IMG/VR virus record: IMGVR_UViG_3300038701_003149
Coordinates: 1 to 56,493 of that record
DNA from: a virus
Length of the DNA: 56,493 nt
Direction: 5' to 3' (one strand)
Shown: piece by piece, positions 15,955 through 56,493 of the stretch
How the letters are laid out: every line of letters begins with the position of its first letter
How positions within the stretch are numbered: position 1 is the stretch's first letter
Notes under the pieces: generated by a model
Seen by the model: the letters and a program-made list of their open reading frames with translations, nothing else
Told to the model about the DNA's origin: nothing
The model's database searches: none
Translations under genes and position numbers: made by a program

Positions 15955-17241
15955 ATGAATAACACCAAAAATAAAATTACTGCTGTTGATTTATTTTGCG
16001 GAGCTGGAGGTACTTCCAGCGGATTAGTCCAAGCATGTAAAGAAGTAGGAGTTAACCTAGAATTGACTGCAATCAACCACTGGGACAAAGCAATTGAAAC
16101 TCATAGTCAAAATCATCCCTATGCGAGACATTTACAAGAAACTATAAATAGCATTAATCCAAGGAAGCTATTTCCTAATGGATTAGACTTTCTTTGGGCC
16201 TCTCCAGAATGCACTCATCATAGCATTGCAGCTGGTGGTCGTCCTCGATGCGATCAAAGCAGAGCTGGTGCTTGGGGGGTCGTTGACTGGGTTCACGCCT
16301 TAGATCCAATTACTTTCGGAATTGAGAATGTTAGAGAGTTTATCAACTGGGGGCCTCTAGATCATAAAAAACATCCAATAAAATCAAAGAAAGGTGAAAC
16401 ATTCAAAAGCTGGATTCGAGCTATTCAGTCTATGGGATATGAAGTGAATTGGCAAATTGTTAACTGTGCCAATTATGGTGATCCAACCACAAGAATGAGA
16501 TTCTTCTTAATAGCCTCTAAAGTTGGCAAAATAGATTTCCCCGAAATTACTCATGTAAAGAAAGGTGAAATGAAATTTATTCCTGGGCAAAAAGATTGGA
16601 TCCCGGCAAAAAATATTATTGATTGGACTATTGAGGGAAAAAGTATCTTCCAAAGGAAGAAACCATTATCAAAAAATACACTGAATAGAATTTGGAAAGG
16701 CATAGAAAAATACTGTAAGGATGAGTTTAAGCCATTCCTTACTATGATGTATGGATCCTCTGACTCAGTTAGTATAGATAATCCTTTACCAACCTTAACT
16801 GCTTCAGGTGGTAATCATTATTTAGCTGAGCCTTTTCTAATTAATATTTGTCACACCAAAGTTAAACATTCAGCTATGGTGAGATCGACCAATCAACCAA
16901 TGCCAACACAAACAACTACTGAAGAGTTTTCTATTTGTGAACCTTTTATAGTTAAGTATTATGGCAACGCTTCTACAGCAGATACTAAAAATCCATTACC
17001 AACAATAACTACAAAAGACCGTTTTGGTGTAGTTCAAACTTACGGTTTCGATATTCGTTTCAGAATGCTAAAACCTCATGAATTATCTGCTGGAATGTCT
17101 TTTCCCAAAAATTACACATTTACTGGAAATCAGGCTGAAAAAGTTAAGCAAATTGGTAATGCAGTTCCAGTAGAAACTTCAAGAAAAATATGCTCAGCAA
17201 TGATCAATAAAATCAATGAATTAATGGAGGTTCCAGCATGA
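15955..17241 (+). CDS. DNA (cytosine-5) methyltransferase
   Basis: DLFCGAGG (I), SPECTHHS (PC motif IV), ENV (VI), QIGNAVPV (X). Confidence 0.95.
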   Translation: MNNTKNKITAVDLFCGAGGTSSGLVQACKEVGVNLELTAINHWDKAIETHSQNHPYARHLQETINSINPRKLFPNGLDFLWASPECTHHSIAAGGRPRCDQSRAGAWGVVDWVHALDPITFGIENVREFINWGPLDHKKHPIKSKKGETFKSWIRAIQSMGYEVNWQIVNCANYGDPTTRMRFFLIASKVGKIDFPEITHVKKGEMKFIPGQKDWIPAKNIIDWTIEGKSIFQRKKPLSKNTLNRIWKGIEKYCKDEFKPFLTMMYGSSDSVSIDNPLPTLTASGGNHYLAEPFLINICHTKVKHSAMVRSTNQPMPTQTTTEEFSICEPFIVKYYGNASTADTKNPLPTITTKDRFGVVQTYGFDIRFRMLKPHELSAGMSFPKNYTFTGNQAEKVKQIGNAVPVETSRKICSAMINKINELMEVPA

Positions 17242-18873: not shown

Positions 18874-20115
18874 CTATTTATCTGTAATAGTATATCTTAA
18901 CTCAATAGTACTCGTAGAGCCCATTAAATCGACATGGTGAGTTGTTTTAATATTACCAATTATAATATCATTTAATCCACCAACACCAATTAGTGCATTA
19001 TCATCAATCATAAAAATTCTAATCTTATAATAATCGATTGTTTTTGTGAAAGATATTGGGCTTAATTCAAGCTCATCTCCAGTGCCAACTGATACAATTT
19101 CAGAAGTAATAGAATCTGCTAGAAAAGCATCAAGTGTTAGTTTACTTGCTACGGCAGTTGACAGAGTAGCTGGAAGATTGGTATGAGGAAAAAGGACCAT
19201 AAGTCTTACATTTTTACTAACTAAATCTGTTGATGATTCATTGACTAAAGTAATTCTAAAATCTAAAGGTGGAGTAGCAACTGTAAAATGATCATCGACA
19301 ATCTTTATTGACCTATCTAACTGGAATCCATTTGGCTCATCAGGAAGAATATAACCAGAATCATCAAAATTATCTGACCCAAGTGTAGTTACATTTAAAT
19401 CACCATCTGTGACAGACTCAACATATGAGTTGCCCCAACCATCAAGGAGCTCATCGCCAAAAGTTTCAATATATGGCCCTTTCCATCCAAATGAGTAATC
19501 GAGAGAAGCATTAAATTGCCATGGTATAAATGATCCTTGTGTAGTTAAGTCACTTATACCTGAAGGCATAGAACCAACATCTCTAATAAAAGATTCTGAG
19601 GCTTCTACAATATCATTTAGTTGGTTTAGATTTTTTTGGTGTTTAAAATTAAAGGCAAAATCATTTTCCAACTTTATAACAATGGATAGATCTTTATCAA
19701 AGGATTCACCATCAATAATATTATCCTTACCTAATGATTTAATTGTAAGCTTACCATCAACACTGTCATCAAAATCAAAGCTAAAACCCCAACCATCTCT
19801 AAAATCAACACCATTTATATCTGAAAGGTAAGGCCCATTCCAGCCAGAAACACCAGGATCTTCGAAGAGATCATTCACAGAAGTTGGAAGTGCATTGGTA
19901 TCGCTTATATATCCAGATTCAACGAGCTCATCACCTACCAAAAGATTATCAGGCCCTGCGATTGCCCGTCTTAAGGTTATAAGCCTTTCTTTTGTTTCAT
20001 CATATCTACCCTGATCTTCAAAATCATCTACTACAAGTAGAGCTGATGAAGCGATAAGACCTAGTATAAAAACAACCAGTATAAGCTCTAATAAAGTAAA
20101 ATTCTTACGCATCAT
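18874..20115 (-). CDS. Prepilin-type (type II secretion/type IV pilus) pseudopilin with two tandem GspG-like domains
   Basis: N-terminal MMRKNFTLLELILVVFILGLIAS (F1..E5 methylation motif). GWNGPY...DGWG...SLGKDN and GWKGPY...DGWGNSY...TLGSDN. Confidence 0.75.
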   Translation of the reverse strand: MMRKNFTLLELILVVFILGLIASSALLVVDDFEDQGRYDETKERLITLRRAIAGPDNLLVGDELVESGYISDTNALPTSVNDLFEDPGVSGWNGPYLSDINGVDFRDGWGFSFDFDDSVDGKLTIKSLGKDNIIDGESFDKDLSIVIKLENDFAFNFKHQKNLNQLNDIVEASESFIRDVGSMPSGISDLTTQGSFIPWQFNASLDYSFGWKGPYIETFGDELLDGWGNSYVESVTDGDLNVTTLGSDNFDDSGYILPDEPNGFQLDRSIKIVDDHFTVATPPLDFRITLVNESSTDLVSKNVRLMVLFPHTNLPATLSTAVASKLTLDAFLADSITSEIVSVGTGDELELSPISFTKTIDYYKIRIFMIDDNALIGVGGLNDIIIGNIKTTHHVDLMGSTSTIELRYTITDK

Positions 20116-20191
20116 GCCTCTAATTAAGATTTTGTCTCAATTAAGTGTTAGATAGGTATATTTCAAGCTCAAAATCTAATAAACTGATCGT

Positions 20192-20713
20192 CTATTTCGA
20201 CCAGACTTTTATTAACCAAGTTGCAGCATTCTTTTTGTATTCTTCTGATCTAAGATCATTTTTGTCGTCCAACTTTTTTAGGATATATGCAGCCAATTCG
20301 CCCAGATTTTCCCCGTAGAAGTTATTTATTGGAGGCTTGTTATTTGCTGACATATGGCCAAGGATTTTCTTAAATCTCAAGTCCTTTAAATGACCAATTA
20401 AAAGCAAGCTGAATACTTTTTTATTTAAGTCCTTTCCAGACAAGCTATGATATAAGAATTCATAAGGGTCTGTATTGCAGCTATAAATCATTAAAGAAGC
20501 TTTAAACTCCAAGTCTCCATCTTGAGATGGTCGGCTACCTAAGAACTTATAAAGTTTATCGAAATCCAATTCACCTTTGGTTGATAACTTATTCCAAATT
20601 TCAACGGACTTAGGACCGAATAAGTCATTACTTGACCAGAATGCCGGAGGCTTGGACTCACTGTAACAGGAGATAAAGAACAGGACTGAAAGTATGTAAG
20701 CCATTTTAATCAT
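20192..20713 (-). CDS. Predicted lipoprotein/secreted helical protein (173 aa)
   Basis: Signal MAYILSVLFFISC with Cys lipobox-like end. Confidence 0.6.
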   Translation of the reverse strand: MIKMAYILSVLFFISCYSESKPPAFWSSNDLFGPKSVEIWNKLSTKGELDFDKLYKFLGSRPSQDGDLEFKASLMIYSCNTDPYEFLYHSLSGKDLNKKVFSLLLIGHLKDLRFKKILGHMSANNKPPINNFYGENLGELAAYILKKLDDKNDLRSEEYKKNAATWLIKVWSK

Positions 20714-20750: not shown

Positions 20751-21074
20751 TCAGGTAGCTTTCTCTTTCGCTAAAATCTTACAGGCTTCAATTACGATCA
20801 CTGTAGACATTGCACATAACCCAACTAAAAATTCTATTTCAAAATATGTAGCTGATTCAGCAAGGAGTTCGTAGCTATGAGCCGTTCGTAGATCATTAAC
20901 ACTATTACTAGTATTTCTAATGTACGCAGCCATACGTTCATAATCTTTATAGAGGTTATTGTTAGAGGACATATGACCATAAAGTAAAGCGCAGATAAAA
21001 AGACAAAGAGCTAACTGTAGGCATGAAAAAAAGTTTAATCTCGAACAGAGGACTTTGATTTTAGCTATGTTCAT
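20751..21074 (-). CDS. Small two-TM membrane protein (107 aa), last gene of the toxin operon
   Basis: 1-nt overlap with the upstream gene. Hydrophobic helices near both ends. Confidence 0.55.
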   Translation of the reverse strand: MNIAKIKVLCSRLNFFSCLQLALCLFICALLYGHMSSNNNLYKDYERMAAYIRNTSNSVNDLRTAHSYELLAESATYFEIEFLVGLCAMSTVIVIEACKILAKEKAT

Positions 21075-21553
21075 TAAATGGTCTCTTGAAATTCAGGATC
21101 TTCCTCTTCTCCGTAACAGATAAAGTTCATTGATTTAAAGCTACCATCTTCTCTTAGCATATAGAGAATAGTTTTCCCAATTTCAATAACTTTTGAAGTG
21201 ACTTTTTTATTCCACAAATCCGTATCTGAATCGAGTAAACCAGCAATACTGTCTAAGAATTGTTGAAGATAGTAAAAAACTACTTCACAGCCTTGTTCAA
21301 GGATGTCTTCTTCATCTTCAATTTTACTCTCATTGGATATAGTGAAAAACAGTCTTCCTGAGTTACAATTTACCTCGATTCCAAAATCATTTAATTTTGA
21401 TGATTCACTATCATGGCCTTTGCCAATCAATTTCGTCTTAAATAAAGAAATTACATCTGATATAATAACTGGTAGTTTTTCTTCAGGTTCCCAGCTATAA
21501 GATTCATTTCTAAAGTATAAACCTCTATCATCTGAGGCTTCTTCCCATGTCAT
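21074..21553 (-). CDS. Candidate immunity protein for the AHH toxin (159 aa, acidic)
   Basis: ATGA overlap immediately downstream of the toxin gene. No signal peptide. Assigned by position. Confidence 0.55.
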   Translation of the reverse strand: MTWEEASDDRGLYFRNESYSWEPEEKLPVIISDVISLFKTKLIGKGHDSESSKLNDFGIEVNCNSGRLFFTISNESKIEDEEDILEQGCEVVFYYLQQFLDSIAGLLDSDTDLWNKKVTSKVIEIGKTILYMLREDGSFKSMNFICYGEEEDPEFQETI

Positions 21554-22662
21554 CTAAGACGTCCTGTTGCGTTTTGTATACCTTTTCTTAATCTGTCGGT
21601 ATAATTAATCAGTAACTGAGCCGCTTCACAACCTGTCATATTGGGTTTTTCAGCCAACGCCATATCTAAGATTTTTTTAACAGCTGCATTATATTTTCTA
21701 TGGTTATATCTATTCTGACCTCTATGTTGATCGTATAACACACCAAGACCATTCATAGCTCCGTTCATATTAAATCCTTTTTTTGCACCTAACTGAACGA
21801 CTTTGTGGTTCCTTAATCCCCAAGGTATAAGGTGATGTGCTTCTAAACCGCTGCCAGTCACTAAGCCTAAAGAACTTCTTAATCTTGTTCTCGCTTCTTG
21901 CCCGGTTTTAGTTAATTCTGTGGTATAATCCAGTAGATCAGGACATCGCTTACCTTTCTTGAAAAGCTTGTAAATTAAACCACTGCCAGCAATAGCGGAC
22001 ATTGCAACTTCAGAGAATACTGAATCAAAGAAATCAGTAGCACCTGACTCCATATTTCTACGAAGTGCTTCATTCTTTAAGGAGTGTAAGCCTTCAGCTT
22101 TTCTAAGTTCTTTTAACGAGTTGTCTTTTGCTACCTGAGTGTATTCTAAACGTTTTAATAAGGCTACTTTATCCTCTTCACTTGAAATACCATCAGTCCA
22201 CCATCCACTAGCTTGTGATCTCATTTTTGGTAAACTCACAAGCACCGGCTCACGCTCTACTTCACCACAGCTCTTTTTAACCAGGATGTCCCGTACATGA
22301 ATCCACTCAGCACCTTCTAATTTCAAGTAAGTCCCTAAGAAGTACTTAGTGTTGAATCCTTCGTCATCTACATAGTAGACACTCTTAGTACTCTCATCGA
22401 CCTCAATAAAATCCAAGCCCCAGGGATCTACTTTTAGCCAAGTACCGAGCTTCCCAACACCTAATTGCATGCCTCCTGAAAAACCAAGACCTCCAGAGAA
22501 GCCATTAACCATGTCGTTATTGACAGAGTTATAGGTATTGATTCCACCAGCGACACCGATGGGGTCTCGATTCAGCCAGCGACCATATTCGGAACTGTAG
22601 AAGCGACCGGCTTGAGTGGTCATAGTGAAGAAAGTCAGAAGTATAAGAAGTAGTTTTTTCAT
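21550..22662 (-). CDS. Polymorphic toxin: signal peptide + Rhs-core tip motif + C-terminal AHH (HNH/EndoVII-fold) nuclease
   Basis: MKKLLLILLTFFTMTTQA | GRFYSSEYGRWLNRDPIGVAGGINTYNSVNN...VDPWGL. C-terminal LEAHHLIPW...NGLGVLYDQHRG..YNHRKYN. Confidence 0.8.
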   Translation of the reverse strand: MKKLLLILLTFFTMTTQAGRFYSSEYGRWLNRDPIGVAGGINTYNSVNNDMVNGFSGGLGFSGGMQLGVGKLGTWLKVDPWGLDFIEVDESTKSVYYVDDEGFNTKYFLGTYLKLEGAEWIHVRDILVKKSCGEVEREPVLVSLPKMRSQASGWWTDGISSEEDKVALLKRLEYTQVAKDNSLKELRKAEGLHSLKNEALRRNMESGATDFFDSVFSEVAMSAIAGSGLIYKLFKKGKRCPDLLDYTTELTKTGQEARTRLRSSLGLVTGSGLEAHHLIPWGLRNHKVVQLGAKKGFNMNGAMNGLGVLYDQHRGQNRYNHRKYNAAVKKILDMALAEKPNMTGCEAAQLLINYTDRLRKGIQNATGRLR

Positions 22663-24059
22663 AGTAGCTTATTTAGCCCTTTTAAAATAAGTTCGTATTT
22701 AAATTTAATGTCAGCCAAATCGTTTTCAAGTGGTTTGGTAAACAAGTACCGATTTGCAAACATGTATTGATAATGTTGTACATACTGTTCGTAAGTCAAG
22801 TCAATTACCTTCTTAACTAGCTTTTTATCAGTTGTATCAAAAACATCATACTTTGTCGCGAGATCATTATACTTTTTCTTATAGTGCTTGATCTCTTTTA
22901 GCATTATTTCTCTATCCGGCTCTTTCATACTTATTAGGCCTTTTCTCATAGCAAGAGATCTAATTGCATTAATAAGTACAGGGTCGAAATCTTCATGGTT
23001 TCTATACAATAAACCTAATAAGTTTTTGGTTGATGGGTTATAGGCCGGACTAAAGTAATAGCAAGAGGCCCAGTACTTCAGGTCGTCTTTTAATTGCTCC
23101 TCTGTTTCGGCATGTTTTCTGGCCGGGTATTTCTCACCATCTACTTTGACCATTTTCTGCCTGGAAGTAACAACAGAAGCATTGAGCAAAAGCACTGCGA
23201 TTGACTGTTTAAGAGAAAGTGTTTTTAGCATTGACGAGGCTTTGAGTTCTATTTCTGATATTTCAATTTTTCCAGTAGTCTCATCCTTGATATAAAACTC
23301 ATCCGGTATACCTACACTCATCGCATTCTTTGAAGTGGATTCAACATTGTATTTAATCTCCCCGTCATCGTACCTACATAGGACGTGCTGCCTTGCCGTG
23401 ACTAAATGCACAGGCATATTCATTCGATTACTGACTAATGTGAAGATGATAGGAAGTGTTGCGCATAATCCTTCATGCTTTTCAATGACATTGGCTATGT
23501 TATAAGACTCTTTGGAAATCTCTCCATATTTGAAGCCTTTGTCTCTTATTAGATAAGTTGCAATTGCGTCAAGCTGATCCTTCGGAGGCATTTGGTGAAA
23601 CTTTTTTCCTTGCCAAGTAAATCTTTTTAAATCAAATTCACACCAATCAAGCCAGTTGGTAAGTTCATTTTCTAAGAATTCTGGATCTGTATACCTGGTT
23701 ATGATTATTACAGCTTCTTCAAGGTTCTTTGCATTTTCTAACTTTTCAATAAGTTCGTGATCAGTATGTTTTACGAAAAAATCCTGGTAGTAGTCAGGCA
23801 GTTTATCCAAGTTCTTCTTGAATACTGGGTACTTGTCTAATGAGACTGGCTTTGATTCTTCCAATTCCAAGACAATTTTAGGTTTTGTTTCTTCTTTAGG
23901 TTGAAAAGCTGGTTCCTGAACTTTTTGAACTGCAGGCTCCTGGGGCTTAACTTCCGGCTTTTTGGGAGGCATGGATAAGTAGATCATAATACCAATGAAT
24001 GTAATCGCGAGTAAACTAACTGCTTTACTCATCTTATTATAAAATTTAATTTTATTCAT
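22659..24059 (-). CDS. Membrane-anchored transglutaminase-like (Cys-His-Asp) protein with helical C-terminal region
   Basis: TM AVSLLAITFIGIMIYL. P/E/K linker. HEGLCATLPIIFTLVSNRMNMPVHLVTARQHVLCRYDDGEIKYNVEST. Confidence 0.55.
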   Translation of the reverse strand: MNKIKFYNKMSKAVSLLAITFIGIMIYLSMPPKKPEVKPQEPAVQKVQEPAFQPKEETKPKIVLELEESKPVSLDKYPVFKKNLDKLPDYYQDFFVKHTDHELIEKLENAKNLEEAVIIITRYTDPEFLENELTNWLDWCEFDLKRFTWQGKKFHQMPPKDQLDAIATYLIRDKGFKYGEISKESYNIANVIEKHEGLCATLPIIFTLVSNRMNMPVHLVTARQHVLCRYDDGEIKYNVESTSKNAMSVGIPDEFYIKDETTGKIEISEIELKASSMLKTLSLKQSIAVLLLNASVVTSRQKMVKVDGEKYPARKHAETEEQLKDDLKYWASCYYFSPAYNPSTKNLLGLLYRNHEDFDPVLINAIRSLAMRKGLISMKEPDREIMLKEIKHYKKKYNDLATKYDVFDTTDKKLVKKVIDLTYEQYVQHYQYMFANRYLFTKPLENDLADIKFKYELILKGLNKLL

Positions 24060-24136: not shown

Positions 24137-24355
24137 TTATCTTCGAAAAGATCCTATAGGTGAAGGGAATTTATTTTTATTATCCATTTTGGATCCCTTT
24201 CCAACTTCATCCAGTATGCTTCCTGTCATGGTTGCGCTGTCTTCGGATAATTGAGTTTTATTTACTGGGACGTTCACCACATTTGAAGCGAAGTTTATCT
24301 GTACTTGACAAGATGAGAAAAAAACTGCAGCTGAGAATAATAAGATTTTTTTCAT
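24137..24355 (-). CDS. Outer-membrane lipoprotein, o-spanin-like (72 aa)
   Basis: MKKILLFSAAVFFSSC lipobox. Short mature part. Follows a TM/coiled-coil gene. I prefer ATG 24355 to 24433. Confidence 0.5.
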   Translation of the reverse strand: MKKILLFSAAVFFSSCQVQINFASNVVNVPVNKTQLSEDSATMTGSILDEVGKGSKMDNKNKFPSPIGSFRR

Positions 24356-24429
24356 GAACCTATTCCAATCATTCCCATTTCTACTAATCATTACTAATAC
24401 ATCATGGATCTGGTTAACTTTAACTTTAT

Positions 24430-24783
24430 TCATTTTTTATCTTTGAGTAATAAATCATAAATTTTGTCCTGTTTATCAAGGACTTTCGAGGTCTGCCTTT
24501 CTACTGTGTTTACTTGAGTTTTCATAACTGCTACATCAGTAGTTAGATCATTTATTTTGTCATCGAGCTTCTTTTTATTTTCTTCAGATTTTGTCTGAAG
24601 TCCTTTAAACCCAGTTTTAAGCTCTTTTAATTGTGTTTTATGACTATCGAGATCCCACCAAATTTTCCCTATACTTCCAACTAGAGCTGCTACAAGTAGG
24701 ACTAATTGAATCATTGAGGTAGCTTTTTTGACGAGCTTGTCAGTTTCATTGGAATTTTCTTCAGGTTCAACTTTTTCATGCAT
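24430..24783 (-). CDS. N-terminal TM + coiled-coil protein, i-spanin-like (or class III holin-like)
   Basis: MHEK... start overlaps the DUF1353 stop (ATGCATGA). TM MIQLVLLVAALVGSIGKIWW, then a heptad-rich tail. Confidence 0.45.
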   Translation of the reverse strand: MHEKVEPEENSNETDKLVKKATSMIQLVLLVAALVGSIGKIWWDLDSHKTQLKELKTGFKGLQTKSEENKKKLDDKINDLTTDVAVMKTQVNTVERQTSKVLDKQDKIYDLLLKDKK

Positions 24784-25294
24784 GGTTAAGATTCCTGTAA
24801 AATTTATTTTCTGTCTTTCTAAAACTGAATCGACCACCCATGCGAACTGCTCTATGCATAGCTCTAACTTTCCAGCCAGAATTTTGCTCGACAATTAAAA
24901 TGCCTTTAAAGATTAGATCTGTGGTTTTTTGGTCGAAAAACTCTTGTGCCTGATCGCTACTTAACTCTTCCCCATTAAGCCAGATTTTAACCCGTCCATG
25001 TATCTTTCCAAAAAGAGCATCATGGATTAAGGCGGCTACAATGAATCTAGGTGACAAAGGAAAGCCAACGACTCTCCAGAAAAAACGAGGTATACTAGCT
25101 CCATCAAAAATAAATAAAGCCGGAATAAATATTTCTACTTTGTGAACTACTCCATCTTCATCAATAAATGTGAAACAAAGGAAGTAGTCATTACGTAGGT
25201 AAAATTCTTGATCACTATCATATATTGGAATAATAGCAGGTCGTGGTGCTATTTCGGTCTCTTCAAAAGAGCTGTCTTTATATATAACGAGCAT
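24776..25294 (-). CDS. DUF1353-family protein
   Basis: FDGASIPRFFWRVVG...AALIHDALFG signature. Confidence 0.7.
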   Translation of the reverse strand: MLVIYKDSSFEETEIAPRPAIIPIYDSDQEFYLRNDYFLCFTFIDEDGVVHKVEIFIPALFIFDGASIPRFFWRVVGFPLSPRFIVAALIHDALFGKIHGRVKIWLNGEELSSDQAQEFFDQKTTDLIFKGILIVEQNSGWKVRAMHRAVRMGGRFSFRKTENKFYRNLNHA

Positions 25295-25387: not shown

Positions 25388-28300
25388 CTACCTTCTAATT
25401 CTGCGATTAGATCTAGATTTCTTCCTTCCTTCAGCACGTTCTTCTATATTGAAATTAGAGAAGTCTGCTAATTCTCTTTCCTCAATTTCACCGCTTAATT
25501 CTTTAGCCCTAAGAGCTTCACGGCGATTTCCTTTCTTCATTGACTCCATTACACCTCTAACCGATCTTGGAGTAATTTGAGGAATTGCAGAGTTACCAGT
25601 TCTTAAAACTTTGGCATTATAATCTTCAATCAATTTCAAGTGCTCTAACCAATCGGCTTGGGATCCACCATTGAGAATGAATCTACGGAGGCCATTATAA
25701 ATGCTAGATTTCCTATCCCGGTAAATCTTCTCCAATTGGAAGTCTTTCCATTGGCGCTCACGCTTCTCAGCTATACCTACAGGGTTAAATCCAAAGAACC
25801 TCCAAAGAGACTCTGAAGTTGAAGCCTTAAGCCTTTCATCACCGAAGTATACAGGCTGGTCTTTACTATTTGTTACTCCCTCAGTGTACTCTCTATGAGA
25901 CTTGAGGATAGTTGAAATATATTTAGGAGAAATACTTTCAAAACCTTTCTGAATATTACCGGAAAAAATTTGACCTATTCCAGTAAATACATCTTTTGCA
26001 GCTGATATTGAGGCCCCTCCAACATCTTCGATTGTTGTTGGAAGTTCAGTTCTCACAGCCAATGATCCTTTTAGAGAAACACCAAATTGACCAGCGACTC
26101 CAAATCTTGCTATTTCTTCTGCCTTCTCTCCAGCATATTCTTCAACAAACTGATAGAAAGCTTCTTCCAAATCATCCGGCTCTTCGAATCCCGGAACCAC
26201 AGAAGCTAATGCTTGAGCCATTGGTAAAAGAACTGAAGCAGAAGCACCAGCAAGTATACCTGGTGACAACATCATCCAAGCAGCTGCTTTAAGATCTCTA
26301 TCTTTACTACCGATTGACTGAGAAAGTAACTGAATATAGTTATGAGTGAAAGTTTGATACATGTAGAATGCACGACCAATCTGACCGCCACCTGAACCAC
26401 GAGCCCAAGCTGGAAGGTTGGCTTTTCCGTAAATACCATGGGCTTTGTCAGCTATTCGTTTTGATAGCTTTAAAAACTCTTCTCTTTTTGAGTCTGTTAA
26501 TTCACCTTCATGCTTATCAACTAAGCCATTGTATGCAGCTGCTATAGTTGAGGCTCTATTCAATCTCTCAGTTACAGAGAAAACAATCAATGATTTCTCT
26601 AAGATATTATTCCAAAGTTTACCGCCCCAATTTCGAGTTACATTTAAAGCTTCTTCATTCATTAAGTCCGAATCCCAACCTCGCTTGGTGATCTCATCAA
26701 ATACGAACTTCTGCTCTCCAGTAAGATCTTTACCTTTTCCGTATTTGTGATACATCATATATTTAGTGTAGTCTCTACCAGCTGAAGCAATGAGCCTTCC
26801 TGATTTACGTATGTTTATTCCACCAAATTGAGACATAGCGCCAGGCACAACAGTACCTAGAGCTGTTAAGTTGATTAATCCGGATGAAACACCAGAAAGA
26901 TATTTAAAAGCTGCTAGAGCTCTTAATTTACCAAATACTCTCTCACTTCCTTCTTCATTTCTTTGCATATCCTGCATATAGTGAAGAGCTTCCTTGAATG
27001 CCCGTGGTTGTTTATCCGACTCAATACTGCGATCGATTACAGCCTTTCTATACTCTGGCCATAACTTAGTTTTTGCATCGTAATATTCTTCAGTACCTTC
27101 AACAATTGATGGATCCAGTTTTTCTTTTAAGAAATCTTTCCATTTAAGATCACGACCTGTAATAGCCTCAACCATGTCTCGAGTCATATTTCTCTTGGCA
27201 GTACCACCAGCTGTCGCACGTACAGACATTGAAACTGCTCTCAGGGCATCTTCTTCAAATCCTAAGAAAACATCTTTTCCTTTGCGACCATCACGAGAAA
27301 TCTTTCTTGCTCTGGATCCACGAGAATGGAACATTACGGCCATCTGCTCAGCAAGAGCTTTACCGAACGCTTCAAATTCAAGAACTCTAGCACCATCCTG
27401 ATTGTGCATTGCACTCGCAAGTGATTTCTCAAGTAATGAAAGTCTATCTTTAGCTTTGTTTCTGAAGATCCATTTGTCACCTTCTTTTTTACCGCCAAAG
27501 CTCTCTAGTACGAGAGAGTACTTTTTAGCGTTTTGACCACTTACTATAAGGTTGTTCCTTTGTCTTCCGGCAGAATCCTTGTAAGCCTCAACCTCAGTTA
27601 CTAATCCAAGATCACTTAAATTATTTGCTTCAGCTTCAGCTCTAAGTAAAGCATTATTAACCAGGTCATTTATAGCAGCGATATTACCACCTTGTAAGAA
27701 TGCGTCTTGTGAAGGTTGGCCACTGATATCGTTCTCAATTGTGTAACCTTCTTTCCTTAGCTTTGCAGCTCTCAAAGATCTTTGAACTCTAGTATCAAAT
27801 AGCTCAAGCCTTGGGTTCTCACCTTCCTTTCTGGCCCAAAGCATTTGCTGACCAGTTCTAAGACGTGGCATATAGGATCCACGAAGATCTCCCATTTTCT
27901 TTAACTCTTCAAAAAGATCAAATAAGTTGGTATCTCCGATAACAGGATTTTCGACTCCGAATTTTTTTGACGACTCTTTTAGTTTTTCAACATTTCCTAA
28001 AAGCATATCATGCTGTCTGGTCATCATCTTTCTGATATCTAAAACAGCCTGGATAGCTTCATCTGACCACTTTTTAGACTTCTTCATATCACCAGACTCT
28101 AATAAGAAAGCATGATGCCAAGCTTTACTCTCTGAACCGTATTCAATATCATTAAATACTTTCTTTCCTTCAGGATTTATGATAGAGAATTTTCCACCTT
28201 CATCTTTAGACTCAACAACACGATAACCGATTTGATCTATATCACGCTTCCACAAATAATCGGACTGAAGCTTTTTCCATTCTTCTTTATTTTCCTTGGT

Positions 28301-31300
28301 GTACTTAACCAAGCTTTCAAAGTTGGATTCACCCTTACCATTTGCTTCATTGAACATCAGTCTTTCTAGGAGAACTTTATCATCACGCAGCTTATTTCCT
28401 GAATCAAAAATTCTTTTTAGAGCTGGTACTTTTTCACTAAAGAAAGAAATACTTCTTATAACTCGATCGAAAATTCCAAGATCACCTTTTTCTTTCTTAT
28501 TTGGTTGTTTGAAATTCTCATAAGCTTTAAGTGCAAAATCCCATGATCCGGCAATACGGCCACCATCTATCTTGGTTGCTTTTTCTAAAGCTTCTTCAGA
28601 GCGAAATAGTTCGTGTACACCCTCATAATTAGAAAGACCAGTTTCACCCCTTTCTGCCAGTTTTCCAGCTAAGGCCCGGTCGTAAATATCTTCAATAACA
28701 TCAATGGCACTTTCTTTGCCAAATAACATTTTTATTCTACGCAATAGACGATTTGCCCACACCTTAAGTTTACCTAAAGATGTTTGACTATTTATTGAGA
28801 ACTCATTTATTTTCTCAATAGCCTGCTCATGGGTTAAACCTAAGTCTAAAGTTGCTTGATCGAACTTCATTGCTTCTTGTTCAGTAAGTAGTAGATCATA
28901 TGCAAAGTGCATAGCTTCATGTCGGGCTGTATCTTCAGCATTTCCCTTACCTTCAGATATCTCAATAAATGAGTCTTTATAACGACCCATAACTTCTTTA
29001 CCTTCAGGACTGATTAACTTTTCTGAAAAGCTAACATTCTTAGTTCCAGTCATTCGTTTTACTAACTTAACAATCTTTGCCTTATCGCTTCTATTAAGTT
29101 CAGAATAATCTACTGAATCAACTACTGAATGCTCATCTCTATACAGCTCAATTCCTCCATCAGTCTCTTTTACCTCTATAGAATCAAATAGATTGTCAAA
29201 AGCCTTTTCTACTTCTGGAATTTCCTCTTTCAGTAAGTAAGGATATTTACCATTCCAAGATGGAGCATCATTACTTATATTGGCTAAATAATCATTACTG
29301 AAACCTTGATCGTTTAATTTCTTAATGATGTAGCTCTCGAAAGTTCTAGCAGCCATCTCAACAGTGGTTGACCAATAAGGCTTTGACCTGAGTTTATCTA
29401 AATCTTTTGATCTCTCAACTAGAGGAGAAGACATAATTTTTTGAACTAAGTCATTGAATGTTTTTCTAACTTCTTCTCTAATCTTTCCATTTGCTGAAGT
29501 CTGGTATGTGCCATTAACTTTTTCAGCCTTCTTAGCGAAATAATTATCCATAGCATGAAACCATTCATGAGCTAAAGATCCTGCCCCGTTTTTACGAGTT
29601 AGATTAATGACAACTTGACCAGGCTCAAAGTGTGCAGCAAATGAATTCTTACCGCCACGACCTCTAGCCCCAAAAGCCATAGCTAATTCACCATTGAGCG
29701 AAATGGATCTAGCCGGAATTTTTAGGATAGAAGATAAATCCATCAAAGCATCATAAGTCTCGTTTAAATGAGACTGTCTTTCCTTTTGAGTCATTGAATT
29801 ACCAAACTGGACTCCACGGAATCCAAATGCATTCTGGAATTCATCTGGTGAAACATCAGAGTTTTCTCTAAAGTTATCACCTACACGGATCCTATTTTCC
29901 TTCATTCTCATTTCAGGAATTTTTTTGATCTCTTCAAGCTTAGAAACCAAATAATCATAATCTTCAGACATTGCTTTCTTTAATTCTTGAAGGTCATTAG
30001 ACTCAACTACTGGAATATAATTTCTGCCAATTTTATGATTGATATAGTATTTTGACTGACCTTCTTCAGGTCTTCTTCTCATACGAATATCAAATTTAGG
30101 ACCTTTCTTTTTAGATTTTGGCTTATCAAGAAGATTAGGCATAACTTCTGTCTTAAACTTCTCAATAACATCATTAAGATTATCTGCTGTAGACATATTG
30201 CCTGAACCAGAATAACCCATGGTGATTACATCCAGACTTTTAGGATTATCGAAAACTTCACCTTTAAAAACAGAATATGATCCGGATTCTATTCTTAAAT
30301 CAGATAAATCGACATCATGGCCAAACTCTTTATAGAGTTCTGACTTTACGAATATCTTCTTATTGAAATTATTATGAGGAGGAAACAATTTTTCTTCAAA
30401 AAATCCAGGTGTTATCTCACCAGATATAAGATTAGAAATATTTCTTCTAGCCTTATTAACTTCAGATACCCAGTTAGAAATTCTATGTGACCTTCTTGGT
30501 TTATTAGGAATAGATTCTCTAATAGCTCTAACTAAACCGACTACTTTTTTATCTACTCCATCACTAACCATTTTCTTATAATTTGGTTTTGGTAAAGCTT
30601 TTGATAATGGTAGAGCTTTTACATCTGTTTCAACATCCAAAGATTTAGCGTAATCTTGCCATTCATGCTTTCGAGCGAACGGTATGACTTCGCCAAAGTC
30701 TTGTAATAAATCTGGATTCTTTTTATTAGATTCTGGTTTATTACTTTTTGATTGGATTTCTTCAGAACCAATGAAAGAACCATTTTCATCTAAGACTTCA
30801 TTTAAATCATCAGATTTATTGCTCTCTACTTCTTCAACTTTCTTTTTAGATTTATCTTTTTTTGACTTCTTTTTCTTTGGATCCGGCTTGGGATTTAATC
30901 CCTTTATTCCTCCAAAAGGTAAGTGAGCGAATCTTTTACCCGATACTCCAGAACTATGAACATCAATAACTTCAAAAGATCCTCCTCTGTGCTGAACAAT
31001 ATCGCCAACCTTAACATTGGATTGATTGAATTCAGCTGGACTATCTTCTTTAGATTTAGACTCTTCAGTAGTTTTTTTGCTATTTAAAATTTCCAAAGCC
31101 TCTGTAGCCAAAAGAACTCCATGCTCTGCATCTGCCTTAACCTTCTCAATAGGCATATTAAGATATGGGTTACTTTGTTTAGGTTCCTCTACCTCTTGCT
31201 CTTTAGAACTATCATCAATATTCAATTCATCTTCATTTAGACCGAGCTCTTTACCTCTTTCTTCAAATGCTTTTATTTCTGCTTCTGCCTGTTTTTCTCT

Positions 31301-33259
31301 TTCTTGCTGCTCTTCAGCTTTATCAATTTCTAAGTCAGCTGTTGATTGTCCATCACTTTCTAGTTTGTTAGCAAGAGATTCAGTTCTATTTTTATAAAGA
31401 AGGTATTCTTGATAACGAGTGGATTTTGACTCAATTGTACCTGGCAACTCAAACCTTCTAAAGGCTTTTTCCATTTCATCTTTATTTCTCAAGTAGGCTC
31501 TATTTAGTCGATCGCCTTTGAGTCTTTTTATGTAATTCTCAGAATAAGGTGCAAGTGTATTTTTATTGCCAATACCTATCTCGAGTCCATATTGAGCTAC
31601 ACTTGCATTAGCAAGCTCTATTGCCTGATCATTAATACTTTTTTCCTGAACAACTTCTTCTGTTTCTTGAAGATTAGGTTCCTGTAATTGCTCAACTTGA
31701 GATTCCTGCTGAATATCACTTTCTTCTTGAATTGTTTCTATAGGATCCAAGCTGAAGTTATTAGATTCAGGAATAATTTCTTGAGAAACTTCATCTTCTA
31801 ATTGTGGTTGTACTTCATTAACTTCTTCCAGCGTTTCTTGAACAGAAGCTTGATCAATATTTTCGTTTAATTCAGCAGCTCTAAATTCATCAAACTCTTT
31901 TTCTTCAGCTAAGTAATCTTCGAATATTTTAGTCTGTGCTTCTGGAGTTAATTTACCAAAGTCATCAGTTTGGTTGGCAACGACTCCCATATCAAGAGTA
32001 GGAATCTCAATTCCATTTTCACCAGGTATAATTTCACTTTTTACCGGAGCACTTGGCCTTTCCCTGAATGATTCAATCGTCTTGGATCCTATTCTTAATG
32101 GACCTCCAACCAGTGCTCCGGCAGCTGCTTGCTCCATCCACTCCATAAAAGTTTCTTTGCTGGTGATTTCAAAATTAGGATCATTGACTTCTTTATTTAA
32201 TGAAGATAAAAATCCTTGAAAAGCTTCTTGGCCACCCTCAGCTGCCGATGATTTCATGACATCGAACATCCAACCCATAGCCTTTTTCATTCCACTCTCT
32301 TTAGCTTTTTGTTTTACAGCATGAGAAATAGGTGAACGCATAAATTGTTTCATAATATCTGGAACAGCACCAAACATTGATTCAGAAGCACCAGAAACTA
32401 AACCAAATAACAAAGATGTCATTGGAGCGTCAATTCCATGATCTCTTGAAAGCTCTGCAAAATTACTACCGGCTTCTGTTAAGCCTATAGCTAGTCCACC
32501 ACCTACTTTTGCAGAAAGACTTTTAACAGCATTCCTTACTACTTCTTTTTCAATTTGAGGTGTAACAAGAGCTTTAGCAGCTGCTATTTCTATTCCTTCT
32601 TTATTAGCTAGATCACGAATATATTTTTTAATAGCTCCTTTGGCGAAAATACCTGATACAGCACCAGCAGGAGCAGCGACTAAATCATCTGGACCTATAC
32701 CTGGTACTACTTGCGATCCAGCAACGGCTCCAGCTGCACTGAAAGTAACAGCTTCAAGAATGGAAGGTAAAGCTTCACCAATGGCTTGAGGTATAGCAGT
32801 GATAAAATTACCAGCACTACCGAATGCACCTTTTTCACCACCACTAATAAAAGAATCAATTGGTACGTATGTCTCAGAAGCTTCTTTTTGGTTTTCAGAA
32901 AAACCTTTTAATCCAAAATCCTTAAGACCTTCTGAACCCACTAAATCACCAAATAATCCTGAAAGTCCATAAGCAGAAGCTTGAAGATTATCGACACCTC
33001 GAGAAAAACCACGGCCAAGAGTTTTAAGTAAACTGGGGTTTTTAATAAAGTCTCTACGACTTCTTTCCGTTTTAATCTCTCTTTGTTTGATTTGATCATC
33101 AGTTTCAAAGTTGTAGTAATCACCATCTTTTTCTAGATAACCACGATCTTGAAGAAAATGTTTAGCATTGCGATCTACACCAGTTCTATCTTTGTCGAAA
33201 CTCAATTCATCAAAGCTTATATCCAATCCATTAAAGTCTGGCATGTTACTGAGCTCCAC
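25388..33259 (-). CDS. Giant (2,623 aa) virion/ejection-type polyvalent protein with two HExxH zincin-like motifs
   Basis: Uninterrupted ORF. G/A-rich hydrophobic N- and C-terminal segments. FGFRGVQFGN...AFGARGRGG...LAHEWFHAMD (29555-29569) and ARHEAMHFAYD (28907-28921). Confidence 0.65.
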   Translation of the reverse strand: MELSNMPDFNGLDISFDELSFDKDRTGVDRNAKHFLQDRGYLEKDGDYYNFETDDQIKQREIKTERSRRDFIKNPSLLKTLGRGFSRGVDNLQASAYGLSGLFGDLVGSEGLKDFGLKGFSENQKEASETYVPIDSFISGGEKGAFGSAGNFITAIPQAIGEALPSILEAVTFSAAGAVAGSQVVPGIGPDDLVAAPAGAVSGIFAKGAIKKYIRDLANKEGIEIAAAKALVTPQIEKEVVRNAVKSLSAKVGGGLAIGLTEAGSNFAELSRDHGIDAPMTSLLFGLVSGASESMFGAVPDIMKQFMRSPISHAVKQKAKESGMKKAMGWMFDVMKSSAAEGGQEAFQGFLSSLNKEVNDPNFEITSKETFMEWMEQAAAGALVGGPLRIGSKTIESFRERPSAPVKSEIIPGENGIEIPTLDMGVVANQTDDFGKLTPEAQTKIFEDYLAEEKEFDEFRAAELNENIDQASVQETLEEVNEVQPQLEDEVSQEIIPESNNFSLDPIETIQEESDIQQESQVEQLQEPNLQETEEVVQEKSINDQAIELANASVAQYGLEIGIGNKNTLAPYSENYIKRLKGDRLNRAYLRNKDEMEKAFRRFELPGTIESKSTRYQEYLLYKNRTESLANKLESDGQSTADLEIDKAEEQQEREKQAEAEIKAFEERGKELGLNEDELNIDDSSKEQEVEEPKQSNPYLNMPIEKVKADAEHGVLLATEALEILNSKKTTEESKSKEDSPAEFNQSNVKVGDIVQHRGGSFEVIDVHSSGVSGKRFAHLPFGGIKGLNPKPDPKKKKSKKDKSKKKVEEVESNKSDDLNEVLDENGSFIGSEEIQSKSNKPESNKKNPDLLQDFGEVIPFARKHEWQDYAKSLDVETDVKALPLSKALPKPNYKKMVSDGVDKKVVGLVRAIRESIPNKPRRSHRISNWVSEVNKARRNISNLISGEITPGFFEEKLFPPHNNFNKKIFVKSELYKEFGHDVDLSDLRIESGSYSVFKGEVFDNPKSLDVITMGYSGSGNMSTADNLNDVIEKFKTEVMPNLLDKPKSKKKGPKFDIRMRRRPEEGQSKYYINHKIGRNYIPVVESNDLQELKKAMSEDYDYLVSKLEEIKKIPEMRMKENRIRVGDNFRENSDVSPDEFQNAFGFRGVQFGNSMTQKERQSHLNETYDALMDLSSILKIPARSISLNGELAMAFGARGRGGKNSFAAHFEPGQVVINLTRKNGAGSLAHEWFHAMDNYFAKKAEKVNGTYQTSANGKIREEVRKTFNDLVQKIMSSPLVERSKDLDKLRSKPYWSTTVEMAARTFESYIIKKLNDQGFSNDYLANISNDAPSWNGKYPYLLKEEIPEVEKAFDNLFDSIEVKETDGGIELYRDEHSVVDSVDYSELNRSDKAKIVKLVKRMTGTKNVSFSEKLISPEGKEVMGRYKDSFIEISEGKGNAEDTARHEAMHFAYDLLLTEQEAMKFDQATLDLGLTHEQAIEKINEFSINSQTSLGKLKVWANRLLRRIKMLFGKESAIDVIEDIYDRALAGKLAERGETGLSNYEGVHELFRSEEALEKATKIDGGRIAGSWDFALKAYENFKQPNKKEKGDLGIFDRVIRSISFFSEKVPALKRIFDSGNKLRDDKVLLERLMFNEANGKGESNFESLVKYTKENKEEWKKLQSDYLWKRDIDQIGYRVVESKDEGGKFSIINPEGKKVFNDIEYGSESKAWHHAFLLESGDMKKSKKWSDEAIQAVLDIRKMMTRQHDMLLGNVEKLKESSKKFGVENPVIGDTNLFDLFEELKKMGDLRGSYMPRLRTGQQMLWARKEGENPRLELFDTRVQRSLRAAKLRKEGYTIENDISGQPSQDAFLQGGNIAAINDLVNNALLRAEAEANNLSDLGLVTEVEAYKDSAGRQRNNLIVSGQNAKKYSLVLESFGGKKEGDKWIFRNKAKDRLSLLEKSLASAMHNQDGARVLEFEAFGKALAEQMAVMFHSRGSRARKISRDGRKGKDVFLGFEEDALRAVSMSVRATAGGTAKRNMTRDMVEAITGRDLKWKDFLKEKLDPSIVEGTEEYYDAKTKLWPEYRKAVIDRSIESDKQPRAFKEALHYMQDMQRNEEGSERVFGKLRALAAFKYLSGVSSGLINLTALGTVVPGAMSQFGGINIRKSGRLIASAGRDYTKYMMYHKYGKGKDLTGEQKFVFDEITKRGWDSDLMNEEALNVTRNWGGKLWNNILEKSLIVFSVTERLNRASTIAAAYNGLVDKHEGELTDSKREEFLKLSKRIADKAHGIYGKANLPAWARGSGGGQIGRAFYMYQTFTHNYIQLLSQSIGSKDRDLKAAAWMMLSPGILAGASASVLLPMAQALASVVPGFEEPDDLEEAFYQFVEEYAGEKAEEIARFGVAGQFGVSLKGSLAVRTELPTTIEDVGGASISAAKDVFTGIGQIFSGNIQKGFESISPKYISTILKSHREYTEGVTNSKDQPVYFGDERLKASTSESLWRFFGFNPVGIAEKRERQWKDFQLEKIYRDRKSSIYNGLRRFILNGGSQADWLEHLKLIEDYNAKVLRTGNSAIPQITPRSVRGVMESMKKGNRREALRAKELSGEIEERELADFSNFNIEERAEGRKKSRSNRRIRR

Positions 33260-56168: not shown

Positions 56169-56404
56169 ATCACAAGCCTGATATCAAAGTCGTCATCATC
56201 TCTAGAGGAGGATCAAGATTGGTTTCTGGAATTAAAAACCAAGATGGAGACAAAATTGAAGTCCAATTAACTGCTGGCGGTCAGCTCCTTCCTCAAAAAG
56301 TTTCCTTTGATATCAAAGACGCGGAAAAAACTCCCAATAGCTCCGATCGATGGAGCACACCAATCTATGTCCTGAAGGACAAAAAAGTACTGATAACTGA
56401 ATAA
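56165..56404 (+). CDS. Hypothetical early protein (79 aa); 3' end lies in the terminal repeat
   Basis: ATGA overlap with the methyltransferase stop. The last 38 nt are duplicated at 1-38. Confidence 0.55.
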   Translation: MNHKPDIKVVIISRGGSRLVSGIKNQDGDKIEVQLTAGGQLLPQKVSFDIKDAEKTPNSSDRWSTPIYVLKDKKVLITE

Positions 56405-56493
56405 GTCGAAACTCCCTGCTTGGGAGTCTGCCAGAACTGACCTACTGGCACTGATGAGACAGGTCAAGGAATAACACAAAGCGCCAAAGCTCT
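56367..56493 (+). repeat. Terminal direct repeat, copy 2
   Basis: Identical to 1..127. Confidence 0.95.

Follow-up and report, generated by a model that had tools for sequence, protein, structure and literature searches.

A predicted Sec-dependent toxin/immunity cassette with a shell-less Rhs tip and a transglutaminase-like partner gene on a phage genome

Rhs toxins are understood as cocoon-encapsulated payloads. The autoprotease region at the C-terminus of Rhs proteins comprises some 14 repeats inside that cocoon (PMC8765631), and orphan rhs modules can act as type II toxin-antitoxin (TA) systems, as reported for Salmonella orphan Rhs elements (PMC7043789). There are also RHS toxins of the Sec/type II secretion system (T2SS) class that carry an N-terminal, catalytically inactive transglutaminase (TGase) domain within one polypeptide (Zhang et al. 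2012, PMC3482391). Here we analyse a locus that touches on each of these themes, found in a viral DNA of 56,493 nucleotides (positions 1 to 56,493 of the IMG/VR virus record IMGVR_UViG_3300038701_003149; this whole stretch is called the window throughout). The locus comprises an open reading frame (ORF) for a predicted exported toxin (ORF2), a candidate immunity gene (ORF3) and a gene for a membrane-anchored TGase-like partner (ORF1). We think it probable that ORF1-ORF3 form a mobile, Sec-dependent polymorphic toxin/immunity cassette, carried as phage cargo (a moron), in which a remnant Rhs tip serves as the handle for the partner protein. All genes and gene parts of the cassette described below lie on the minus strand of the window.

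The predicted toxin and its relatives

ORF2 (21550-22662; 370 aa, pI 9.35) opens with a Sec-type signal peptide (22609-22662; aa 1-18, MKKLLLILLTFFTMTTQA) with predicted cleavage before GRFY, and these 18 residues are all that stands ahead of an Rhs-derived tip (22414-22608; aa 19-83). The Rhs-associated core profile TIGR03696 (Rhs_assc_core) matched aa 18-53 at 37.3 bits against a cut-off of 32.5 (E=3e-9), covering profile positions 34-69 of 76. Compared with solved structures, the same residues aligned to the last residues of every Rhs/TcC shell (for instance to 1111-1141 of 1152 in 8h8a), so that “bare tip” is an accurate description. Neither RHS_repeat nor TEN_YD-shell gave a match in ORF2 at E<=1, while RHS_repeat did match the full-length Rhs protein of contig L001 that served as positive control; ORF2 thus lacks YD repeats, as the original prediction had held.

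The tip consists of a first part, GRFY...NRDPIG...NNDMVNG (22501-22608), a Gly-rich insert (22432-22500) and VDPWGL (22414-22431). Relative to the PxxxxDPxGL box of Rhs proteins the Pro is replaced (NNDMVNG) and about 23 residues are inserted ahead of VDPWGL; the residue after the Gly of the box is not conserved in the family. Asp33 and Asp79, which correspond to both catalytic Asp residues of Rhs proteins, are invariant. No Gln or Lys of the tip is invariant, and transglutaminase cross-linking through a conserved Gln or Lys of the tip was rejected for want of any such residue. Across the cassettes described below the tip has a mean identity of 57%, and 53% of the identical residues are encoded by different codons, which argues that the tip is under selection at the protein level. 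The insert had been singled out as splitting the two halves of the box; it is indeed there, but it is not unique to ORF2, for it recurs in full-length Rhs proteins, and judged by this distribution it is a feature of a lineage. We refer below to a tip with this insert as the special tip.

Downstream of the tip lies a middle region (21934-22410; aa 85-243) with no homologue and no domain match, possibly a linker or entry domain. The C-terminus is a predicted nuclease domain of the AHH type (HNH/EndoVII fold; 21553-21933; aa 244-370), for which PF14412 scored 32.1 bits against a cut-off of 22.3 (E=1.3e-7, aa 268-342). The AHH codons lie at 21832-21840, exactly where they had been placed, and the downstream N, H, H and Y motif residues at 21688-21774. 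The motifs AHH (275-277), FNMNGAMNG (297-305), DQHRG (311-315) and NHRKYN (320-325) follow the published list for Tox-AHH domains, namely [AG]HH, N, H, H, Y (PMC3482391), and all are kept in a second protein, P0002, which shares only the AHH domain with ORF2 (54% identity over aa 244-370, the alignment starting at aa 244) and carries it behind a different, ordinary Rhs core. ORF2 gave no Pfam or PHROG match for a MuF domain and no Pfam match for DUF1020 (MAFB-N).

A word-indexed search with ORF2 returned four relatives only, three of which (P0003, P0004 and P0005) share the signal peptide, the tip and the Gly-rich insert and then diverge completely. An exhaustive HMMER search, in which a profile of signal peptide plus tip was run against 1.84 billion representatives, gave 56 matches below 1e-10, and about 26 of these were short proteins (143-373 aa) matched from residue 1. 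They form approximately 26 clusters at 50% identity, with signal peptide, special tip and diverse C-termini. A canonical signal peptide, with a K/R n-region, a hydrophobic core, small residues at -3/-1 and an end exactly at the first tip residue, was found in 26 of 27 N-terminal tips (the window included), and because it is so widely shared the signal peptide of ORF2 is real rather than an artefact of start-codon choice. The hallmarks of a polymorphic toxin were both found, that is, a conserved N-terminal part joined to unrelated C-termini and a downstream immunity gene that varies. In seven cassettes compared in this way, mean identity was 44% for the partners, 57% for signal peptide plus tip and 8% for the toxin C-termini. 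Hints as to the other payloads include several HExxH motifs and one lysozyme-like motif (both noted by eye), one C-terminus with weak SLT and PG-binding matches, and zincin-type Pfam matches in two C-termini, one weak (the L016 toxin) and one a precomputed Aspzincin_M35 assignment (P0018).

The special tip is not confined to short proteins, as it also ends long exported Rhs proteins of ~970-1850 aa, one of which belongs to a Lentisphaerales metagenome-assembled genome (MAG) from Station ALOHA. Intermediate forms have a signal peptide, few YD repeats and the tip (P0031, P0040, P0053), and a broader class lower down the ranking (P0058, P0071, P0138 and others) has an Rhs tip of the ordinary, complete kind between its signal peptide and a short C-terminus. 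IMG/VR, searched with the tip profile, yielded no relatives. Public annotations describe the family's proteins as “hypothetical” or give them generic COG names. In the JGI annotation ORF2 begins only at M14 (357 aa) and ORF1 only at M25 (442 aa), whereby the signal peptide (22609-22662) is lost and the transmembrane (TM) anchor is cut by the removal of 23988-24059; such truncated calls may be part of why these proteins stay annotated as hypothetical and are not recognised as exported.

One chromosomal island deserves separate mention (L001, 601-11000; European Nucleotide Archive ERZ25072999, ctg312864). It encodes an exported protein of 1399 aa that combines duplicated lectin-like modules and PA14 with a YD region of only ~300 aa, apparently too short for a canonical cocoon, as well as the special tip and a toxin. 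Behind this gene come a leucine-rich-repeat (LRR) immunity-like gene, then an orphan tip of the classical kind, and then a tip toxin that has a signal peptide of its own. We also note, in a small sample, that DP[WFY]G closes every one of the seven special tips with a linked partner, while the ends of the partner-less and full-length ones are more variable (DS, DA, DR, DF, DT and one DP).

The partner, the candidate immunity gene and the genomic settings

ORF1 (22659-24059; 466 aa) encodes the partner protein. It has one TM segment (23970-24020; aa ~10-32), a Pro/Glu/Lys linker (23877-23969), a SirB1-like transglutaminase core and an all-helical, TPR-like C-terminal half. Transglut_core2 matched at 30.8 bits against a cut-off of 23.5, so that each of the three profiles that had been proposed as checks (AHH, TIGR03696 and Transglut_core2) scored above its curated threshold, and the description of ORF1 as a TM-anchored protein with a TGase-like core holds. 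The partners in L016, L022 and L035 also pass the Transglut_core2 cut-off, and the N-terminal TM segment is conserved in the homologues.

In nine cassettes (the window, L002-4, L006, L007/8, L016, L024-26, L027-29, L022 and L035) the gene directly upstream of the toxin encodes a TM-anchored Transglut_core2 protein. Seven of these toxins carry the special tip and two an ordinary tip, the latter from an organism of higher GC (L022) and from a Pontiellaceae/Kiritimatiellota MAG (L035). Partner and toxin genes share a 4-nt stop/start overlap in seven of the nine (the window, L003, L006, L016, L024, L027 and L035), and the ORF1 homologues upstream of shell-less tip toxins stand at 24-49% identity. 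This conserved adjacency supports the view that the TGase-like gene is a functional partner of the tip toxin. Word-indexed searches had found only two partner homologues, even with a profile, and the partner profile found no relatives in IMG/VR or in GTDB genomes; the further cassettes came mostly from contigs encoding tip-toxin matches, with partner matches contributing L006 and L007/8. Among the mid-length matches no “Rosetta stone” fusion of partner and tip was seen, those proteins being Rhs proteins with YD repeats. Beside two full-length Rhs genes (L001, L015) no partner gene occurs within the sequence available, and LRR-type immunity-like genes follow instead.

Seven residues of the partner (G197, C199, H225, R229, N238, E240 and D253) are invariant in eight sequences down to 24% identity, and in nine, with the Pontiellaceae partner included, down to ~21-25% identity. 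They include the putative triad Cys199 (EGLCATLP, 23451-23474), His225 (RQHVLCRY, 23370-23393) and Glu240 (YNVESTS, 23331-23351), the Glu standing at the place where Asp is usual; the putative catalytic centre as a whole spans 23331-23474. With Cys, His and Glu thus preserved, ORF1 looks catalytically competent. An AlphaFold2 model from a 9-sequence alignment (pLDDT 79, pTM 0.72; an earlier model from 3 sequences, at pLDDT 47, was unusable) shows a TGase-like core of alpha/beta type with a long helical domain behind it, and from about residue 250 of the segment that was modelled it consists of helices alone. The top 50 fold matches of this model in the PDB were all menin, at marginal scores (E~1e-3, TM-score 0.3-0.4). 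In menin, a TGase-like thumb and a TPR palm form a deep peptide-binding pocket. A PDB sequence search with the partner profile gave nothing meaningful and a BFVD fold search gave no match; the short, L022-type partner is named in IMG as a sirC regulator with transglutaminase-like and TPR domains, that is, SirB1/COG2912, and the L035 partner has weak TPR matches.

Two further observations concern the partner gene. L032 (1-9145) matches the special tip four times in a tandem array, in three ORFs of toxin size and inside one 165-aa ORF. Two of these toxins have Aspzincin_M35 matches, small genes are interleaved (one of them with a weak CdiI_5 match), and a partner gene lies at the 3' end; this layout suggests that one partner may serve several toxins in trans. 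In L003 and L004, which stem from two different samples, the partner gene carries the same frameshift (~nt 60-150) and in L002 it is intact, which would fit either a circulating pseudogene or a shared assembly error.

Downstream of the toxin, ORF3 (21074-21553; 159 aa, pI 4.25, no export signal) had been described as an acidic, cytoplasmic protein in the classical immunity position, which is borne out, and it is a candidate for the cognate immunity protein. The one relative that could be detected is a 160-aa gene directly downstream of P0002, at 27% identity over 75 aa (pairwise E=2e-6), and P0002 contains the only other AHH domain of ORF2's subtype that was found. Since this relative sits behind an AHH toxin with a different core, the immunity candidate appears to travel with the toxin domain and not with the tip. 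The immunity genes of seven cassettes have a mean identity of 13%. Six of the seven products have export signals, the exception being the DNase-paired ORF3; this fits toxins that act where their substrate lies, and it speaks for a weapon used between bacteria rather than for a TA or abortive-infection module at work inside the cell.

ORF1/ORF2, ORF2/ORF3 and ORF3/ORF4 have stop/start overlaps of 4, 4 and 1 nt, and the ORF listing reproduced exactly the four leftward frames that had been reported. As judged from the cassettes compared, however, the conserved unit is three genes: partner, toxin and immunity. ORF4 (20751-21074; 107 aa) does have the two hydrophobic segments ascribed to it, but with no homologue in any other cassette or library its membership is uncertain and a four-gene unit is not borne out. 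The membership of ORF5 (20192-20713; 173 aa), which has a lipobox-like N-terminus (LFFISC) and no family match in the libraries scanned, is equally uncertain; it is possibly the last gene of the transcription unit, with a terminator-like hairpin after it (20184-20204). In a promoter and terminator scan the counts were not above shuffled expectation, and we make no claim as to transcription units.

The window itself is a phage. Its genes include those for both terminase subunits (large and small), the portal, the major capsid protein and an internal virion protein, along with a phrog_1 integrase (4858-6327; E=4e-25) adjoining an HTH_3 protein and a replication module that runs rightward. Positions 1-127 are identical to 56367-56493, and this exact 127-nt terminal overlap indicates a circular assembly, and thus a complete phage genome of ~56.37 kb rather than a host-flanked prophage. 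A megablast search of INPHARED phages with 24.5 kb around the cassette gave no match. The cassette occupies the distal end of a long leftward late operon, directly after a weakly spanin-like gene pair.

The cassette is phage-borne, as originally proposed, and lies on a complete, integrase-bearing genome, but it is not specific to phages. The cassettes with a partner sit in two phages that are related to each other, on plasmids of two types, on one contig that resembles a mobile element and on one that resembles a chromosome. L006 is a phage related to the window (59% identity for the large terminase subunit, 48% for the portal and 64% for the major capsid protein), and its cassette lies on the opposite strand beside the terminase genes, a different position from that in the window. 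L016 is a plasmid-like contig with MobA and Rep3, L027 and L028 carry Rep3 and ParA, L007 encodes a 2983-aa RadC/SNF2 polyvalent protein, and the neighbours in L024 are chromosome-like (a sulfatase, ThuA and a HEAT-repeat gene). Judged by these settings the cassette is mobile, occurring on phages, plasmids and chromosome-like contigs of PVC-group bacteria, and the most likely host of the window phage would be a marine Lentisphaerales or other PVC bacterium. Near the small terminase gene of L006 (17900-21344) there are also genes for Abi_alpha, a Tad2-like protein and Sequestin (an anti-defence sponge).

Several neighbouring genes of the window may be noted in their own right. Upstream, at 25388-33259 on the minus strand, a 2623-aa polyvalent protein with LPD5 and LPD1 domains (phrog_616) directly precedes DUF1353 and the spanin-like genes; such a protein is typical of the large multi-domain proteins that phages and conjugative elements inject. 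The likely spanin pair (24137-24894, minus strand) comprises a 154-aa ORF with a TM segment and a coiled coil (weak Rz-like PHROG match, E=0.004), whose TTG start gives a 119-nt overlap with the DUF1353 gene and probably lies too far upstream, and a 98-aa ORF with an internal lipobox (MKKILLFSAAVFFSSC). No endolysin was recognised among the window proteins scanned. Two genes downstream of the cassette (18874-20115, minus strand) the phage encodes a protein of 413 aa that combines a T2SS GspG-like domain with a motif for prepilin N-methylation; a link to T2SS export through this pseudopilin was considered and rejected, prepilin-type genes not being recurrent near other cassettes. A C-5 cytosine DNA methyltransferase in the replication module (15955-17241, plus strand) is probably used for anti-restriction self-methylation.

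Proposed mechanism and alternative readings

We propose that the cassette works as follows. Sec would export ORF2 to the periplasm, where the periplasm-facing ORF1 would recognise the conserved tip, perhaps in the pocket between its TGase-like and helical domains, and would then either cleave the toxin off, as a thiol peptidase using Cys199-His225-Glu240, or hold or present it. In doing so ORF1 would replace both the Rhs shell and the built-in aspartyl autoprotease of full-length Rhs toxins; as a tip of ~65 aa is a mere fragment of the ~14-repeat autoprotease region, help from an external factor is plausible. The AHH DNase would kill cells without ORF3, and lysogens would be protected by the cytoplasmic, acidic ORF3, so that the prophage would arm its host, and itself, competitively. 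A sharper form of the proposal, in which the tip is an N-terminal sorting or processing signal and ORF1 a dedicated periplasmic sortase- or leader-peptidase-like thiol protease that releases or hands over the toxin, giving PVC bacteria a shell-free pathway of maturation and delivery that phages and plasmids have spread, we advance tentatively, as an idea that we would sooner expect to fall than to stand.

A number of points weigh against the cassette as we read it. Five or six tip toxins (P0005, P0004, P0014, P0018 and the second toxin in L032, with P0071) have no adjacent partner and sit in tandem toxin/immunity arrays, hence a partner in cis is not a requirement, though a single copy might serve a whole array or genome in trans. 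Since both tip Asp residues are invariant, the tip might still cleave itself, which would make a partner peptidase unnecessary, and the menin match, at marginal scores, is to a non-catalytic peptide-binding scaffold. That the ORF1 domain faces the periplasm we infer from the single N-terminal TM segment only, no device for outer-membrane export or for entry into target cells was identified, and the host assignment comes from tip similarity and not from a host-flanked prophage.

The alternative that survives best, although we regard it as unlikely, keeps the competitive weapon and changes the role of the partner: ORF1 would be a scaffold without catalytic activity, resembling menin or SirB1, which binds the tip as a tether or adaptor and so anchors or presents the toxin at the membrane or the cell surface, any release being left to the tip Asp residues. 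The uniform fold matches to menin, with its deep peptide pocket, would suit such a role, as would the invariance of Asp33 and Asp79, and for toxins in which a TGase domain, and after it RHS repeats, follow a signal peptide or TM segment, anchoring by peptide binding has been suggested before (PMC3482391). The fused TGase domains of that study have, however, lost their catalytic residues, whereas Cys, His and Glu are invariant in the nine partners here; the menin scores are marginal, and the tip holds no conserved Gln or Lys that would suit a transglutaminase-type cross-link.

The original prediction had offered three roles, namely a weapon of lysogenic conversion, an orphan tip able to recombine into a host rhs gene, and an abortive or exclusion module; the first, as a competition weapon, is the best supported, and the other two fared poorly. 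As a recombination reservoir, the phage would ferry an orphan toxin/immunity module whose tip DNA recombines into a full-length host rhs gene and replaces its toxin. The special tip, insert included, does end full-length Rhs proteins of the presumed host lineage, and in L001 the main rhs gene and its adjacent orphan, at 80% DNA identity with a 52-nt exact run in the tip, make a classical substrate for C-terminal displacement. The tip DNA of the window, on the other hand, shares only 60-73% identity with each of the tips sampled, no exact run being longer than 20 nt, so that recombination into a host rhs gene has no support at the DNA level, and a signal peptide of its own, a coupled partner and conservation at the protein rather than the DNA level point to a module built for stand-alone expression. 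We consider the reservoir improbable.

More improbable still is a role in addiction, abortive infection or exclusion, by which the pair would stabilise a mobile element or kill infected cells while acting inside the producer like a TA system. It could appeal to the fact that all well-resolved cassettes lie on or beside mobile elements, to the cytoplasmic location of ORF3 and to the TA-like behaviour of orphan rhs modules, as reported in Salmonella (PMC7043789). The role is disfavoured because the toxins (26 of 27 members) and six of seven immunity proteins carry export signals and because PADLOC models matched none of 9 proteins (E<=0.01); the hints of envelope-acting payloads (the weak SLT and zincin matches and the lysozyme-like motif) speak in the same direction, and a dedicated membrane partner would have no role in a cytoplasmic TA system.

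Finally, a lysis or virion function for the phage, with ORF1 as a membrane-tethered papain-fold endolysin and ORF2 as a lysis-associated or ejected protein, might be read from the place of the cassette directly behind the spanin-like pair at the end of the late operon and from the lack of an endolysin among the other proteins scanned, but it is largely refuted by the same trio on plasmids and in chromosomal contexts without phage genes. In L006 the cassette lies on the opposite strand beside the terminase genes, no PHROG family matches any cassette protein, and in our judgement the reading has next to no chance of being correct.

The preferred reading, a cargo cassette whose partner uses the tip as a handle, has several implications. 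All that remains of the cocoon in a sizeable family is its last ~65 residues, fused to a Sec signal and paired with a TGase/TPR membrane protein that is encoded separately and apparently active. Should this partner process or present the tip, it would be a new way to make and release a polymorphic toxin without a shell and without type V, type VI or type VII secretion systems; it would give a SirB1-like protein a testable function, and interbacterial weapons would be seen to change hands between the phages and small plasmids of little-studied marine PVC bacteria. If the thiol-protease form of the proposal were true, a member of the SirB1/YchA family would have a first concrete biochemical role, in peptide recognition and cleavage. 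The tip and partner profiles could also be used to search out dozens of toxin and immunity domains that still lack annotation.

Comparison with known systems

The combination seen here had been put forward as undescribed. In the searchable literature, which leaves out most subscription-journal papers so that absence is not proof, neither signal-peptide, shell-less Rhs-tip toxins nor a separate TGase/TPR partner are described, and the cassette family is apparently an undescribed, Rhs-derived polymorphic toxin system; the association of TGase domains with RHS toxins, in a fused and inactive form, was nonetheless noted earlier (PMC3482391).

With the Rhs/YD-repeat toxins and orphan Rhs C-termini the cassette shares the extreme C-terminus of the Rhs core, including both Asp motifs, a variable toxin and an adjacent immunity gene, and, as in those systems, there are chromosomal arrays with further toxin/immunity modules; the same tip moreover occurs on full-length Rhs proteins of the lineage. 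It departs from the Rhs toxins in having no YD repeats or shell, in the ~23-aa insert within PxxxxDPxGL and in a dedicated TGase/TPR partner gene. No type VI secretion system, PAAR, VgrG or TcA/TcB context was seen around the cassette. Classical orphans, furthermore, are without a secretion signal, whereas the cassette toxin is a Sec signal fused straight to the tip. The toxins of Zhang et al. (PMC3482391) likewise place a TGase-fold module after either a signal peptide or a TM helix, tying it to Sec-exported, Rhs-derived polymorphic toxins, but in those the TGase, RHS and toxin parts are fused and the TGase is dead; here the TGase-like protein comes from a separate, coupled gene with an invariant Cys-His-Glu, and RHS repeats are absent.

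In organisation the locus also recalls the MafABI system of Neisseria (PMC4287609), with its upstream exported accessory (mafA), a toxin that has a Sec signal, a conserved N-terminal domain and a C-terminus that varies, an immunity gene, and alternative toxin/immunity cassettes further downstream. The likeness is organisational only, as the families are unrelated (DUF1020 as compared to an Rhs tip, an outer-membrane lipoprotein as compared to a TM-anchored TGase/TPR protein) and Maf is chromosomal and restricted to Neisseria. MuF toxins (PMC5576092) and the Bacteroides Bxa system (PMC11699363) are, similarly, polymorphic toxin/immunity pairs on temperate phages that can benefit the lysogen; MuF proteins have a phage head-morphogenesis N-terminus and Bxa an N-terminal domain of its own, neither has an Rhs tip, a signal peptide on such a tip or a TGase partner, and the present cassette, unlike them, is not confined to phages.

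The partner taken by itself shares with SirB1/YchA (COG2912) and menin the two-module architecture of Transglut_core2 and TPR, as reflected in the Pfam match and the menin fold matches, and differs from SirB1/YchA in its TM anchor and linker (and hence a presumably periplasmic location), its longer helical C-terminal half and its fixed pairing with Rhs-tip toxins. On the small mobilisable plasmids (L016; L027/28), lastly, a secreted toxin, an immunity gene and one accessory gene stand among few cargo genes, much as on colicin-type plasmids; colicins are released by a lysis protein, whereas the toxins described here would leave by Sec export, they lack recognisable receptor-binding and translocation domains, and their accessory gene encodes a TGase/TPR protein.

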